Source: Betaproteobacteria bacterium
GTDB lineage: Bacteria; Acidobacteriota; Vicinamibacteria; Vicinamibacterales; CAVVIG01
Length of the DNA: 64,000 bases
Direction of reading: 5' to 3'
Assembly: GCA_050257855.1 (NCBI GenBank)
Contig: JBLMXQ010000133.1
Span: 51,651-115,650 of the forward strand
A program made the position numbers and the translations under genes. The notes under the pieces are model-generated. The model was not told the DNA's origin, did no database searches, and worked only from the letters and a program-made list of their open reading frames with translations. Positions within the stretch are counted from its first letter, which is position 1. Each line of letters opens with the position of its first letter. Positions 24,570-29,853 of the stretch are shown in pieces.

Positions 24570-24857
24570 CTATGCCCGGGGCGCCGCGCGCTCCCGGCTC
24601 TCGCGGGTGCCGGATGGCAGCTTCGAGGCCAGGTACGCGACGGCGCCGTCGAGCGTGTACAGGCGGGCGTAGTCGGCTTCTGGGATGTCCACGCCGAGCC
24701 GCTCGTGCAGCGCGACAACGAAATTGAGGAAGTCCATCGAGTCGAGATCGAGCTGCTCGCGGAGCATCGTCCCGGCCTCAATCGACGCTGGCTCCACCTC
24801 GGGCGCTATCCGCGTGAGCGCCTCGAGGACCACGCTCCTGATCTCGTCCGCCGTCAT
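24570..24857 (-). CDS. Acyl/peptidyl carrier protein (ACP-like, 95 aa)
   Basis: LREQLDLDSMDFLNFVVALHERLGVDIPEADY is a DSx phosphopantetheine-serine helix-II pattern. The ATG overlaps the E2 stop (ATGA at 24854-24857). Confidence 0.75.
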   Translation of the reverse strand: MTADEIRSVVLEALTRIAPEVEPASIEAGTMLREQLDLDSMDFLNFVVALHERLGVDIPEADYARLYTLDGAVAYLASKLPSGTRESRERAAPRA

Positions 24858-26020
24858 AGCCGCTCCGGCTTCTGCAGCCAGCCGTCGACGGCCGTGAGAA
24901 ACGTGCCGCCGCGGTGGCCGTCGCTCGCCCGATGGTCGGCCGAGAGCGTCGCCGTCAGCAGCGGCCGCGCCTCGATGCCGCGCGGTCCGGCCCAGGGACG
25001 CGCCGAGATCTTCCCGAACCCGACGATCGCGACCTGTGGCGGGTAGATGATGCCGAACGCCGCCTCGACGCCCTGATCGCCGAGGTTCGTCACCGTGATC
25101 GTCGGATCCGAGAGCTCCGAGCTTCGGAGCGATCCGGCGCGCGCGCGGCTGACGAGATCGTGCAGCTTCCGCATCAGCGTCGTCAGATCCAGCGTGTTCG
25201 CGTCGTGCAACGCGGGCGCGACCAGGCCGCCGCCGCGAAGGGAGATGGCGCATCCGACGTGGATGCCGGCGCCCTTGCGGAACGCGCCGTCGATCCAGTA
25301 GCCGTTCAAATCGGGCACGTCACGCAGCGCCAGCGCGACCGATTTGATCAGCAGGGCTGTCGGGAGAAGACGATCGGCCATCGGCCGCTTCTCGTTCTCG
25401 GCGCGTAGCCAGGCGAGCGCCACGCTCATGTCGACCGTCGTCGACAGGTAGTAGTGCGGGATCTCACGTTTCGACCGCGCCATGGCGGCTGCGATTGCGG
25501 TCCGCATCTGAGCGGCGCGATCGGGTGCCGCCGGGGCCCGGCCCGGCGGCGTCCGCGATGCCGCAGCGGCTCGCTCGACGTCCGCGCTCGTGATCGCGCT
25601 CTGCGTGCCCGTGCCCGCCACCTGCGCCAGATCGACGCCGCGCTCCGCCGCGATCCGGCGCGCGAGCGGCGAGACGCGCACGCGGCCGCCCTCGGGCGGC
25701 CCCGCGACCATGGGCTCCGGGCCCGCGACCGTCGGCTGTGGCCCCGCGACCGTCGGCGGCGATGGAGCGGCGGGTTCCCGCGACTCCGGACCCCGGATCA
25801 CGGCCAGCACGGCTCCGACCGGCACTTTCTCGCCCGGCTGAACGACGGTGTGATCGAGCACGCCATCCTCGAACACTTCGATCTCGATGGCGCCCTTCTG
25901 AGTGTCGACGACGGCGATGATGTCGCCCCGCGCGAGGCGGTCGCCGGGCTGCTTCAGCCATTGGACCAGCGTGCCGGCTTCCATGTCCGCACCGAGCGCC
26001 GGCATCCGGAATTCACTCAT
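24854..26020 (-). CDS. 2-oxoacid dehydrogenase E2 (dihydrolipoamide acyltransferase): lipoyl + PSBD + catalytic domains
   Basis: Lipoyl domain ...[27 protein letters not shown]-repeat linker. [27 protein letters not shown]. Catalytic ...[18 protein letters not shown]. Confidence 0.9.
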
Positions 26021-26996
26021 GGCGACCCGCCACTTCGCGCGCCGCCGCTGCGATCGTCGCGGGCTGGGGGAGTGCGGCCTCCTCGAGATGCCGGGGATAC
26101 GGGATTGGCACCTCGGCGCTGCAGACGCGGGCGATCGGCGCGTCGAGGTCGTAGAATGCCTGTTCCACGAGGCGAGCGACGATCTCCGCCGACAGGCTGC
26201 CGCTCTTCCAGCCTTCGTCGATCACGACCGCACGGTGCGTCTTCCGGACCGAGGCCGCCACCGTCGGCATGTCGAGCGGACGCAGGCAGCGGAGGTCGAT
26301 CACCTCCGCGTCGATGCCGTCCGCGGCGAGGCTCTCGGCCGCCTGAAGCGTCTTGCCGAGCGTGCCGCCGTAGGTGACCAGCGTCACGTGTCGGCCCTCC
26401 CGCCGCACGGCCGCGCGATCGATGTCCACCGGGCCCGCATCGTCAGCGAGCTGGCCCTCCACGTTGTACAGCGCCTGGTGCTCGAAGATCAGAACCGGGT
26501 CGGGGTCTTCGAGCGCCGTCCACAGCATGCCGCGCGCATCCTCGAGGGTGGCGGGCGCGAGGATCCGGAGTCCGGGGATGTGCGCGTACCAGCCTTCCAG
26601 GCTGTGCGCGTGCTGTGCGGCGAGCTGCCGTCCGGCGCCGGTGGCCATGCGGATGACGAGCGGGATGTTGAACTGCCCGCCCGACATGTGGCGGATGGTC
26701 GCCGCATTGTTGACGATCTGATCGAGCGCCAGGAAGCTGAAGTTGACCGTCATCACCTCGACGATCGGCCGCATGCCGCCGAGCGCCGCGCCGATGCCGG
26801 CGCCGACGAACGTCGATTCCGAGAGCGGCGTGTCGCGGATGCGCTCGGGGCCGAACTCGGCGAGCAACCCCTTGCTCACAGCGTAGGTTCCACCGTACTT
26901 GCCCACGTCCTCGCCCATCAGGAACACGCGCGCGTCCTTCGCGAGCGCCTCCCGATGGGCGGCGCGCACGGCCTCGCGATACGTGGTCGTGGTCAC
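26013..26996 (-). CDS. 2-oxoacid (pyruvate/acetoin-type) dehydrogenase E1 beta subunit
   Basis: GTG 26996 ([10 protein letters not shown]). [20 protein letters not shown] ... [29 protein letters not shown] ... It overlaps the E1alpha stop and the E2 start. Confidence 0.9.
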
Positions 26997-28066
26997 GGGC
27001 GTCCTCCCGTTTCGGCCGACGGGCGGAGGTCCGCCGATGCGCAGACGTCGGTCAGCAGGTGTTCGACAGGTTCCCACGAGGCCCCTTCGGCAAATCGCAC
27101 TGCGAGATCGACCTCGTCGGCAACGCACGTTTCGAGCGCAGCCAGCATCGCGTCGCCCGCGACCTGTCGATCCTTCAGGTGCGCGGTCAACAGCCGGATC
27201 GGATCGCGCTCCTTCCAGGCGTCGACCTCGGCCCTGTCGCGATACAGCTCGGCGTCGAACATCGAGTGGGCGCGGAAGCGGTAGGTGCGGAACTCGAGGA
27301 ATGCCGGCCCTCCACCCCGCCTCACCGCGTCGGCGGCACGCCGTGTGGCTTCTTCCGTCGCGAGGACGTCCATGCCGTCGACCGTTTCGGCGGGCAGGAG
27401 ATAGCTGCGCGCCTTGGCGGCGAGGTCGACCTGCGACTGCGCGCGGTCGATGCGCGTGCCCATCGCGTACAGGTTGTTCTCGCAGAGAAACAGGACCGGC
27501 AGTTTCCACAAGGCGGCAAGATTCAGCGACTCGTGGAATTCGCCTTCCGCGACCGCTCCATCGCCGAAGAAGCAGGCCGTGACACGTGGCCGGTGCTGCA
27601 GCATGTCGGCGAGCGCGAGGCCGACCGCGACCGGGAGCCCCGCGCCCACGATCGCGCTGCCGCCGTAGAACCGCGTGGCCGCATCGAACACGTGCATCGA
27701 TCCGCCGCGGCCGCGGCTGCAGCCTTCTTCCTTTCCGTACATCTCCGCCATCAACCGATCCATGGGGATGCCCCTGGCCAGGGCGTGCCCGTGCTCGCGG
27801 TACGTTGCGACGATGGCATCGTCGGGCCCGAGCGCCTGGAGCGCGCCGACCGCGATCGCTTCCTCGCCGACATACAGGTGCAGGAAGCCGCGAATCTTAC
27901 CGGCGCTGTACAGCTCGGCGCATTTCTCCTCGAACCGGCGGATGCGGAGCATCTCGTGCAGGAGATGCAGGCCGTGGTCGCGGCCGACTTCACGGCAGGG
28001 CGTGCCCTGCACTCCTGGAGCAGGAGGCGACAGTGTCGAGGGGGTCTCCGCGCGCAGCTCGCTCAT
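26993..28066 (-). CDS. 2-oxoacid (pyruvate/acetoin-type) dehydrogenase E1 alpha subunit (TPP-binding)
   Basis: [16 protein letters not shown] ... YREHGHAL ... GGSMH ... [37 protein letters not shown]. The ATG overlaps the synthetase stop (ATGA 28063-28066). Confidence 0.9.
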
Positions 28067-29853
28067 GATGGCTCCAGTGTCGAGACGTCCCCTTCGGGCA
28101 GCCCCAGCTCCCGCGCCTTGAGGAGCCGCCTCATGATCTTGCCGGCCCGGTTCTTCGGTATCGACGGCTGGAACTCGATCTCCTTCGGCGCGACGGCGGC
28201 GCCGAGACGCACGCGCGCGAAGCCGAGCAGCTCGCGCATCAGCTCCTCGCCGGGCTCGTACCCCGGTTTCAGGGCGACGAACGCCTTGACGACCTCGAGC
28301 GCCACCGGGTCGGGCTTGCCGATCACCGCCGCCTCGGCGACCGCCGGGTGTTCGAGCAGCGCGCTCTCGACCTCGAACGGCCCGATCAGGTGTCCCGACG
28401 ACTTGATCACGTCGTCGGCGCGGCCGACGAACCAGTAATAGCCGTCGCTGTCGCGCCGGGCGAGATCGCCGGTCAGGTAGTAGTCGCCGGCAAAGCACTG
28501 GCGATAGCGGGCCTCGTCGCCGAGGTAGCCGCGGAACATCGACGGCCAGCCCGGCCGGAGCGCGAGCTCGCCCTCGGTATCGGGCGTCTCGACGGCTTCG
28601 ACCTTCTGTTCGCCGGTGCGGCGGACGATCGCGGCGTCGATGCCCGGCAGCGGGCGGCCCATCGATCCGGGACGGACTTCCATCGCGGCGAAGTTCGCAA
28701 TCATGATCCCGCCGGTTTCCGTCTGCCACCAGTTGTCGTGGAACGGCCGATCGAACGCGTCGATGCCCCAGACGACCGCTTCGGGATTCAGCGGCTCGCC
28801 GACGCTCGCGAGGAAGCGCAGGAAGGGCAGCCGATGCTGTCTGGCCGCCGCCGCGCCGACCTTCATCAGCATCCGAATCGCCGTCGGCGCCGTGTACCAC
28901 ACGTTGACGCGCTCCGCCTCCAGGATCGAATACCAGCGATCCGCGTCGAAGTCGGCTTCGTCGGCAATGCTCGTCAGCCCGTGCGTGAGCGGGGCGACGA
29001 TGCCGTAGGACGTTCCGGTCACCCAGCCGGGATCCGCCGTGCACCAGAAGACGTCGTCCGGATGGAAGTCGAGCGCGAAGCCGGCGGTCGCATGGTGAGC
29101 GACGACCGCCTCGTGTACGTGAATGGCGCCTTTCGGCCTGCCCGTGGTGCCGCTCGTGAAGTGGAGCAGCGCCGGATCGTCGGGAGCAGTCGGGGGAATG
29201 ACGAACCGCTTGTCGGCCCCGGCCATGAGAGCGCTGAGACAGCGCACGCGAGAAAGCGTTCGAATCGCAGCCGCGTCGCCGATGAGCAGCACGTGCTCGA
29301 GGCTCGGCAGCCGACTGCGGATCGGTTCCACCTTCCGGCGATACAGCGTATCGGTCGTCACGAGCACTCTTGCGTGCGCGATGTCGATTCGCGACTGGAT
29401 GGGCTCCGGTCCGAACGCGGAGAACAGCGGCGCGAAGACGCTCCCGTTCTTGAGCGTCCCGAGCGCGGCCACGTACAGCTCCGGCACGCGTCCGGTCAGC
29501 GATGCGACCGCATCGCCCTTGCCGACGCCGAGCCCGGTCAGCACGTTGGCGAAGCGGCTCGTCTCCTCGCACAGATCGCCGTAGGTGAAGTCTTGGCGCG
29601 TTCCGTCCTTGGCAATCGAACGCAGCGCGACGCGATTGCGGCGGATGCCGACGGCGTGGCGGTCGACGGCCTCGTGTGCGATGTTGAGGCCCCGGCCGCC
29701 GGGAAGCCCGTCCAGTTCGGCGCGGGCGCGCGCCCAGGAGAACCCGGCGCGCGTGCGGTCGTAGTCGACCAGGTTCGGAACGGTCGTCCACGCGCCCGGC
29801 GGCTTCGGGATGGCGGGCCAGCGGCTGCTGACGGGCGCGGCGGGCTCCGGCAT
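28063..29853 (-). CDS. AMP-forming acyl-CoA/acetyl-CoA synthetase family enzyme
   Basis: ATG 29853 lies 7 nt after [18 protein letters not shown] (AMP-binding P-loop), [12 protein letters not shown], ...[38 protein letters not shown] ... [12 protein letters not shown]. Confidence 0.85.

Follow-up and report, generated by a model that had tools for sequence, protein, structure and literature searches.

The 64,000-nt stretch analysed here (the window; positions 51,651 to 115,650 of contig JBLMXQ010000133.1, assembly GCA_050257855.1, labelled Betaproteobacteria) carries, at 24570-29853 on its minus strand, a five-gene cassette for an AcsA-type acetate ligase (Acs), the alpha and beta subunits of a pyruvate dehydrogenase (PDH)-type E1, a dihydrolipoamide acetyltransferase (E2) and an acyl carrier protein (ACP). 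PDH and Acs are textbook coenzyme A (CoA) enzymes. The preferred reading, to which we give a probability of about 45%, is that the cassette forms a self-contained, mobile acetyl node of hypoxia, stress and dormancy islands, in which the ACP would act as a private acetyl-thioester carrier between the PDH-type E2 and Acs. Read 5' to 3' on the minus strand, its genes are as follows:

28063-29853, minus strand: AcsA-type AMP-forming acetate ligase, 596 aa from the ATG at 29853 (NF003313, AMP-binding and AMP-binding_C)
26993-28066, minus strand: PDH-type E1alpha, 357 aa (E1_dh, TIGR03182, thiamine diphosphate (TPP) motif GDG-X26-NN)
26013-26996, minus strand: E1beta, 327 aa (Transket_pyr and Transketolase_C, PRK09212)
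24854-26020, minus strand: E2, dihydrolipoamide acetyltransferase, 388 aa (Biotin_lipoyl, E3_binding, 2-oxoacid_dh)
24570-24857, minus strand: dedicated ACP, 95 aa (PF00550, S40 in DLDSMDFLN)

All five have clean translations from these coordinates. The stop of Acs and the start of E1alpha overlap as ATGA at 28063-28066, E1alpha and E1beta as GTGA at 26993-26996 (E1beta starts with GTG), E1beta and E2 by 8 nt at 26013-26020, and E2 and ACP as ATGA at 24854-24857, within ...GAG CGG CTA TGA CGG...; judged by these overlaps, the five genes are translationally coupled. A GAGGAG Shine-Dalgarno sequence stands before the Acs start codon, ATG 29853, and the frame is open from GTG 29859. The original prediction, made from the letters of the window, had described a coupled synthetase-E1alpha-E1beta-E2-carrier operon, and all of its junctions were confirmed, as were its five parts, by Pfam, and the motifs it named (TPP motif, lipoyl-lysine context, peripheral subunit-binding domain (PSBD), DHRASDG and LDLDSMDFL). 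Profile searches of the five proteins used Pfam and NCBIfam, with scores set against the curated cutoffs. The window has a G+C content of ~70%, and its raw list of open reading frames (ORFs) is crowded as a result; statements of absence for the window refer to ORFs with coding-like third-position G+C, called across the 64 kb and then scanned with Pfam. No E3, polyketide synthase (PKS), nonribosomal peptide synthetase (NRPS), fatty-acid synthase (FAS) or phosphopantetheinyl transferase (PPTase) is found among these ORFs, which agrees with the earlier claim that the first four are missing nearby.

The cassette is widely conserved. Among 84 loci fetched with the ACP as anchor, 59 include at least 5.3 kb of upstream DNA, and 57 of these 59 carry Acs, E1alpha, E1beta, E2 and ACP in the same order; since the loci are independent, the arrangement is more than chance. 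E2 lies immediately upstream of the ACP in 82 of the 84 loci, and the 4-nt overlap between the two genes is kept in 77, making it the most conserved junction of the operon. The adjacency of the ACP had been singled out for comparison in related genomes, and it is conserved there. Carriers include Acidobacteriota (Vicinamibacteria, Thermoanaerobaculia, Terriglobia and Holophagales), Alpha-, Beta- and Gammaproteobacteria and Polyangiaceae. A search of plasmids places the cassette also on plasmids or chromids of cultured Cupriavidus, Ralstonia, Burkholderia, Paraburkholderia phymatum and Azospirillum, and of Methylocystis, Sinorhizobium, Leisingera and Rhodococcus (pDK1); cultured carriers include Cupriavidus sp. 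USMAHM13, Rhodococcus sp. DK17, Azospirillum oryzae and Methylocystis rosea. The enzymes of the cassette are 60-87% identical across phyla (70-87% for E1beta). The five proteins of the Rhodococcus copy are 63, 65, 73, 51 and 53% identical to those of the window; the Rhodococcus and Cupriavidus copies are equally similar to the window, which argues for horizontal spread of the whole unit. These comparisons imply that the cassette is inherited as one unit and is horizontally mobile. In a comparison of the window with loci L005-L017, the closest relatives of its cassette are all in metagenome-assembled genomes (MAGs) of Vicinamibacteria (Acidobacteriota), at 70-89% identity, and betaproteobacterial copies reach only 55-66%. 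Given the Betaproteobacteria label of the source MAG, this means either a recent transfer of the island or mis-binning of the contig.

The 95-aa product scores 29.8 bits against Pfam PP-binding (PF00550; gathering cutoff 20.8) and falls under every NCBIfam cutoff. Ser40 is invariant in 27 aligned homologues. An AlphaFold2 (AF2) model (pLDDT 83) has four helices, the second of which begins at Ser40, and the top Foldseek matches of this model are type II FAS and mitochondrial ACPs, with TM-scores up to 0.89. Profile and model together mark the protein as a real ACP, and its original identification as a carrier protein stands. The family comprises more than 2,500 homologous 90%-identity clusters at 60-80% identity, and relatives occur in 487 genomes in a scan of one genome per species. 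Because even the 150th-ranked 50%-identity representative of the ACP profile still lies inside a full cassette, the family is essentially cassette-specific.

The E1 and E2 components point to PDH. E1alpha scores 275.8 bits against E1_dh (PF00676) and 436.5 bits against TIGR03182, PDH E1alpha (cutoff 393.85), and its TPP-binding motif (GDG-X26-NN, ending in ...ENN) is present; E1beta contains Transket_pyr (PF02779) and Transketolase_C (PF02780) and scores 400.5 bits against PRK09212 (cutoff 321). E2 is built of Biotin_lipoyl (PF00364), E3_binding (PF02817) and 2-oxoacid_dh (PF00198) domains and lies under every NCBIfam equivalog cutoff. Lipoyl K42 and D362-H-R..D-G (the catalytic motif reads SADHRASDG) are invariant in 57 homologues, and the PSBD core is invariant or nearly so. 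Among solved structures, E1alpha is closest to human PDHA1 (245 bits, versus 124 bits for the E1alpha of branched-chain 2-oxoacid dehydrogenase, BCKDH) and E2 to mammalian PDH E2 chains (~219 bits, versus at most 97 bits for the E2 of BCKDH and 2-oxoglutarate dehydrogenase, OGDH). Acetoin dehydrogenase (AcoABC) was rejected, as PRK14875 gives 80.5 bits (cutoff 307) and covers only E2 residues 3-154, that is, the lipoyl domain and the PSBD. Since the nearest solved structures are those of PDH and the acetoin model matches only in part, the substrate of E1/E2 is most likely pyruvate. The enzymes look intact and under purifying selection.

Compared with mitochondrial and alphaproteobacterial PDH, the cassette shares an E1alpha that passes TIGR03182, an E1beta that passes PRK09212 and a lipoyl-PSBD-catalytic E2 with DHRxxDG. 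However, its operon and window lack an E3, its E2 is below the equivalog cutoffs, and it is an accessory, horizontally moved unit joined to Acs and an ACP in stress islands. Rhodococcus and Cupriavidus presumably have other PDHs. No Pyr_redox_2/Pyr_redox_dim protein (the E3) is present in the window or in the annotated related loci. Because E2 keeps a conserved E3-binding domain, a housekeeping dihydrolipoamide dehydrogenase (Lpd) could serve, and an unlinked Lpd elsewhere in the genome is likely. For the same reason the lack of E3 noted in the original prediction says little in favour of an unusual system. The use of PDH in reverse as a pyruvate synthase was also considered and dropped, the lipoamide potential being too high.

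Acs scores 882.8 bits against NF003313, acetate--CoA ligase (cutoff 729), and has the Pfam domains AMP-binding and AMP-binding_C. The closest solved structure is PDB 9g79, a 572-aa acetyl-CoA synthetase chain (540 bits) that we take to be Bacillus subtilis AcsA. The cassette enzyme has the full set of adenylation motifs and the acetate-pocket Trp equivalent to Salmonella W414, and W377/W378, the A10 lysine K574 (GKIMRR) and R549 are invariant in 55 cassette homologues. The lysine targeted by the acetyltransferase Pat is likewise kept, in a motif, R-[SA]-G-K-I-M-R-R, that is invariant in the 55 sequences. An AcsA-type ligase with an invariant acetate-pocket Trp, combined with a PDH-type E1/E2, makes the acyl unit almost certainly acetyl, from pyruvate and acetate; the substrate, originally left open-ended, is thereby narrowed. 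The ACP as octanoyl donor for lipoylation of E2 was dropped, as no lipA or lipB lies nearby and the Acs pocket is acetate-sized.

The same family-model score, acetate-pocket Trp, A10 lysine and adenylation motifs make the cassette enzyme resemble AcsA-type acetyl-CoA synthetases, but it differs from them in its loop and in heading a PDH operon whose last gene encodes an ACP. The equivalent of the CoA-binding loop reads Y-R-R-K and is conserved in the 55 sequences, whereas it reads L-E-R-I in the 9g79 chain and E-G-V-R-A-G-R in Salmonella Acs. In Syntrophus aciditrophicus an AMP-forming Acs, Acs1, runs toward ATP; its CoA-binding loop sets the direction, and it has a K in place of Salmonella R194 (PMC4992975, PMC13404658). 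The cassette Acs also has a K at this position. However, it belongs to another Acs subfamily, its loop is one residue shorter, and Syntrophus has no ACP.

Outside the full cassette, the ACP family occurs in partial arrangements and in fusions. Acs-ACP-GNAT, with an ATGA overlap and without E1 or E2, is found at loci L076 (Ferribacterium; 8214-10783) and L077 (3109-5672), and L038 has E1-E2-ACP without Acs. Fused N-terminally to a Pat-type GNAT acetyltransferase, the ACP occurs in at least 40 distinct 90%-identity clusters (260-320 aa, 41-85% identical), for example at L024:3866-4651 (minus strand), L092:9001-9879, and L093 and L094:9001-9885, and in proteins P0227, P0268 and P0391-P0425; as judged from these sequences, the fusion is a real domain combination. 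The best PDB matches of the GNAT are the Pat proteins 9isq and 9it0, the PatA GNAT domains 4nxy and 4u5y, and Rv0998 (4ava), and it partially matches NCBIfam NF058543. At L092 the order on one strand is Acs-E1alpha-E1beta-E2-ACP-[ACP-GNAT], the fusion directly following a full cassette, and at L024 the fusion is divergent from Acs. A Pat-type GNAT stands beside the cassette at L018 (a fragment), L024, L025, L050, L065, L074 and L086, and at L091 a GNAT typed by Pfam only lies ~2.3 kb downstream of an E2-ACP fusion. The latter (P0364, 490 aa, L091:8001-9473) is the one natural in-frame E2-ACP fusion, the sole match of a chimeric-query search, and belongs to a full cassette. Since ACP-GNAT fusions occur outside the cassette, the ACP family can evidently work without an adjacent E2 or Acs. 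By gene order or fusion, this family is thus tied to Acs, PDH-E2 and Pat-GNAT, all of which handle the pantetheine thiol of acetyl-CoA or CoA.

Two of these proteins or loci have further features. At L077, hopanoid-type squalene synthase genes resembling hpnCDE (two SQS_PSY genes and an amine oxidase gene) precede Acs-ACP-GNAT. P0140 (239 aa), a single case, joins an ACP of this family to an OsmC/Ohr-like peroxiredoxin domain, and it could be an assembly artefact. Ohr-type enzymes are reduced by lipoylated proteins, and the link of P0140 to a lipoyl-E2 cassette may not be accidental.

In another explanation, the ACP would be mainly a regulatory or sensor module and not carry flux between E2 and Acs. 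It would report acetyl or CoA status to a Pat-type acetyltransferase, which in turn switches Acs and perhaps other dormancy proteins. The fused GNATs, with their resemblance to the catalytic domains of Pat, PatA and Rv0998, fit this explanation, as do the GNATs beside the cassette at the loci named above (L091 and L092 included) and the invariant Pat target lysine of Acs. Known Pat enzymes have varied N-terminal sensor domains. We nevertheless consider a sensor improbable: a GNAT is missing from the 10 kb around the cassette in most loci, the window included, the ACP is coupled more tightly to E2 than to Acs or GNAT, and the membership of E1 and E2 in the unit would be left unexplained. The cassette does resemble the Pat/AcuA control of Acs: several loci have a Pat-type GNAT next to it or within it, and Acs has an invariant target lysine. 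It differs in the frequent fusion of the GNAT to this ACP family, and the window has no GNAT.

The setting of the cassette was assessed from upstream DNA and neighbouring genes. Of 57 related loci, 29, most of them proteobacterial, have an exact FNR/FixK/Anr-type box, TTGA-N6-TCAA, in the 350 nt before Acs, versus 3.5% of random windows of equal size (positions are relative to the extrapolated Acs start codon). The box is absent from the Acidobacteria-like loci closest to the window, and a simple k-mer search finds no shared motif in the box-less upstream regions. Promoter and terminator consensus scans give nothing above shuffled expectation. The Rhodococcus copy adjoins a GAF-domain kinase, a response regulator and a universal stress protein (USP), a DosS/DosR-like arrangement. 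When neighbours were clustered across 85 loci, the surroundings proved to vary by locus, yet the same gene families come back: PolX, the commonest (15), S30AE fused to a cold-shock domain (S30AE-CSD; 13), GroEL (9), P-type ATPase (9), phosphoribosyltransferase (PRTase; 8), RtcB (7), nicotinate phosphoribosyltransferase (NAPRTase; 7), phosphoribosyl pyrophosphate (PRPP) synthetase (6) and CBS-BON (6). A setting in hypoxia, stress or dormancy islands is supported by the neighbours (USP, Hsp20, GroEL, CBS/BON, S30AE-CSD, RtcB, PolX, NAPRTase and PncA), by the enrichment of TTGA-N6-TCAA and by the DosS/DosR-like pair of Rhodococcus.

These islands resemble the lxa locus of Burkholderia cenocepacia, which likewise has USPs, Hsp20/alpha-crystallin, BON/CBS proteins, a polysaccharide deacetylase and a cation ATPase. 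A TGA-N6-TCA Anr/Fnr-like motif is reported for lxa (PMC3721108), compared with TTGA-N6-TCAA at related cassette loci. However, the published lxa gene list contains acetate kinase and a phosphotransacetylase-like gene and no PDH/Acs/ACP cassette (PMC3721108), and the window has no TTGA-N6-TCAA box.

On the private-carrier reading, E1 would decarboxylate pyruvate and acetylate the lipoyl arm of E2, and E2 would then hand the acetyl group on, with the phosphopantetheine thiol of the co-translated ACP as acceptor in place of free CoA or alongside it. This transfer from E2 to ACP is inferred. Acs would act on the same ACP, converting acetate and ATP to acetyl-ACP or, run in reverse under energy starvation, acetyl-thioester, AMP and pyrophosphate (PPi) to acetate and ATP. 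Housekeeping E3 (Lpd) would dock on the E3-binding domain of E2 and reoxidise the lipoamide, and the phosphopantetheine is assumed to be attached by housekeeping AcpS. Under limiting oxygen or energy, the ACP would in this way hold an acetyl pool separate from that of CoA, and in lineages with a Pat-type GNAT, either as a protein of its own or joined to a second copy of the ACP, the acetyl-ACP pool would probably also drive protein lysine acetylation, for example of Acs. Three fates of the acetyl group are conceivable: reversal of Acs, donation to a Pat-type GNAT where present, and hand-off to unlinked enzymes. Its fate is the weakest step of the mechanism because no conserved sixth gene consumes acyl-ACP, as seen in the neighbour clustering across 85 loci.

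Several points weigh against a private carrier. E2 has all the canonical features of a CoA-dependent E2. Acs is basic at the positions of the Salmonella contacts to the CoA 3'-phosphate, R191, R194 (here K176) and R584 (here R549), and its score, far over the acetate--CoA ligase equivalog cutoff, fits ordinary CoA use equally; the conserved basic residues could bind either the 3'-phosphate of CoA or an acidic ACP helix. Reversal of Acs, which requires PPi and high AMP, is unusual; the NADH that a PDH makes under hypoxia needs a sink, and the cassette encodes none. The scanned ORFs of the window include neither a PPTase nor a GNAT, and TTGA-N6-TCAA occurs nowhere in the 64 kb. The ACP-GNAT fusion is also found in lxa-like islands without the cassette (L093 and L094). 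Finally, the E2-ACP fusion P0364 comes from a long-read MAG with a truncated E1alpha; it could be an indel artefact and carries little weight.

The CoA-related points among these suit a conventional explanation, in which an accessory PDH and an acetyl-CoA synthetase make ordinary acetyl-CoA under low oxygen or stress and the ACP is no substrate of either; it would serve housekeeping or stress-specific lipid work, for instance in priming or remodelling membrane lipids, or add to the ACP supply. Acs, E1alpha and E1beta all pass curated equivalog or subfamily thresholds of CoA-linked enzymes, the CoA-contact basic residues of Acs and the E3-binding domain of E2 are kept, and the PGAP annotation, which names the five genes singly and recognises no system, is identical to this view. 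A few islands also contain lipid enzymes, namely a cyclopropane-fatty-acid synthase (CMAS) in the window and Aas-like proteins in 5 loci plus L093 and L094. We regard this explanation as rather unlikely. If the ACP were unrelated, its 4-nt overlap with E2 would not have persisted in 77 of 84 loci from different phyla, and its family would not be essentially confined to the cassette; no FAS or ketosynthase (KS) gene is conserved nearby, and the ACP also accompanies Acs alone and is fused to acetyl-CoA-type GNATs.

A dedicated carrier protein next to E1 and E2 also recalls natural-product priming, in which a C2 or other acyl unit is loaded onto an ACP as building block for a lipid or secondary metabolite, as in the quinocarcin, naphthyridinomycin and pepteridine pathways. 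In pepteridine biosynthesis (Plu2796) an E2 primes a carrier protein (PMC5384830), and the E1/E2 carrier priming of naphthyridinomycin, named in the original prediction, is documented there by a citation of Peng 2012. These systems share with the cassette a TPP-dependent E1, a lipoyl E2, a dedicated carrier protein and an E3 borrowed from the host (PMC5384830). However, they lie in NRPS/PKS clusters with a condensation enzyme, whereas no KS, PKS, NRPS, condensation or FAS gene is conserved beside the cassette in ~90 loci, and the cassette has a true PDH-type alpha/beta E1, an Acs, a hypoxia/dormancy context and a very wide distribution. Membership in the priming systems therefore fails on their defining biosynthetic context. 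Building-block supply is formally alike and would account for the dedicated ACP, but it is very improbable: the enzymes are of the primary-metabolism PDH type with an E3-binding domain, and occurrence in 487 species genomes, stress islands and FNR-type boxes are unlike a natural-product cluster. The suggestion that the operon feeds a lipid or metabolite pathway is not supported, the context being one of stress, hypoxia and dormancy islands. Loading of a standalone ACP by an adenylate-forming ligase, the step that a private acetyl carrier would ask of Acs, is known from MitE and MmcB (PMC9570651).

What is already known comprises the family of each part (PDH E1/E2, AcsA-type ligase and ACP) and the loading of a carrier protein by an E2. 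What appears to be new is the fixed five-gene unit, with its very wide distribution and hypoxia/dormancy setting, together with a cassette-specific ACP family and the ACP-Pat-GNAT fusion; open-access papers and bioRxiv yielded no description of the Acs-PDH-ACP cassette or of the fusion. Annotation pipelines name the five genes singly and do not see the unit. More broadly, and more doubtfully, many aerobic soil bacteria may possess a CoA-independent acetyl-carrier system that helps them survive when oxygen or energy is lacking, in which an accessory PDH loads the ACP from pyruvate, the AcsA-type enzyme makes ATP or loads the ACP from acetate, and acetyl-ACP is the donor for Pat-type acetyltransferases, some of which are fused to the ACP. 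If true, a protein-bound thiol would replace CoA in a cassette found in hundreds of species, a new branch of central acetyl metabolism, and would be a new carrier both for that metabolism and for protein acetylation during dormancy. It would also offer a biochemical handle on the energy and acetylation status of obligate aerobes (Acidobacteriota, rhizobia, Burkholderiales and Rhodococcus) in hypoxic dormancy, and the ACP-GNAT fusions suggest that protein lysine acetylation may also draw on acetyl-ACP. As the cassette is small, self-contained and present in cultured strains, the hypothesis is directly testable.

In the window, the operon is surrounded by the following features:

23184-23900, minus strand: S30AE ribosome hibernation factor fused to a cold-shock domain (Pfam; fusion near the cassette in 13 of 85 loci)
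23244-24560, plus strand: CBS-pair protein (two Pfam CBS copies; true start probably near 23950), convergent on the ACP
29854-30059, no strand assigned: intergenic region separating the divergent Acs and LigA-like genes, presumed to hold the promoter, with no sigma-70 consensus match and no TTGA-N6-TCAA
30060-34881, plus strand: LigA-like NAD-dependent DNA ligase, PolX (PHP) polymerase and tandem-domain USP (Pfam), divergent from the operon
35192-38657, both strands: GroEL paralogue (plus) and Hsp20 (minus) (Pfam; GroEL near the cassette in 9 of 85 loci)

The stop of the CBS-pair gene is 9 nt from that of the ACP. One flank of the operon adds a sigma-70 paralogue, a polysaccharide deacetylase, RtcB and NAPRTase; the other comprises the LigA-like ligase, PolX, the tandem USP, GroEL, Hsp20, a PncA-like isochorismatase, CMAS and a Mut7-C RNase. 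The stress and dormancy genes among these (S30AE-CSD, CBS, PolX, LigA-like, USP, GroEL, Hsp20, PncA-like, NAPRTase and RtcB) all lie within 12 kb. The sigma-70 family protein of the island (538 aa, regions 1.2, 2, 3 and 4; 21477-23093, plus strand) may be island-specific and could explain why the operon is preceded by neither an FNR-type box nor a sigma-70 consensus promoter.

Other members of the island fall into recognisable sets. Repair genes are found at 18950-20695 and 30060-33847 (RtcB, a second LigA-like ligase with a long N-terminal extension, and PolX-PHP). The NAD salvage genes for NAPRTase (17429-18784) and the PncA-like protein (38714-39757) flank the island, and PRPP synthetase and other phosphoribosyltransferases recur in related loci. 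Aas-like proteins of ~940 aa (PP-binding, AMP-binding and acyltransferase, hence with a carrier domain of their own) recur in cassette islands (L085:4046-6865, L002:14494-16836, L003:19314-end, L005, L081, L093:13183-16059 and L094:1-1527) and may serve to re-acylate lysophospholipids in dormancy. The island continues at 40054-45017 with other genes of stress type, namely the cyclopropane-fatty-acid synthase, the Mut7-C RNase with a ubiquitin-like domain, and a trehalose-synthase-like alpha-amylase, after which comes a 425-aa ORF without a Pfam match. Upstream of the island, at 8412-14029, lies a SUF iron-sulfur operon (SufB, a SufC-sized ORF, SufD, a SufS-like aminotransferase and an FeS_assembly_P protein).

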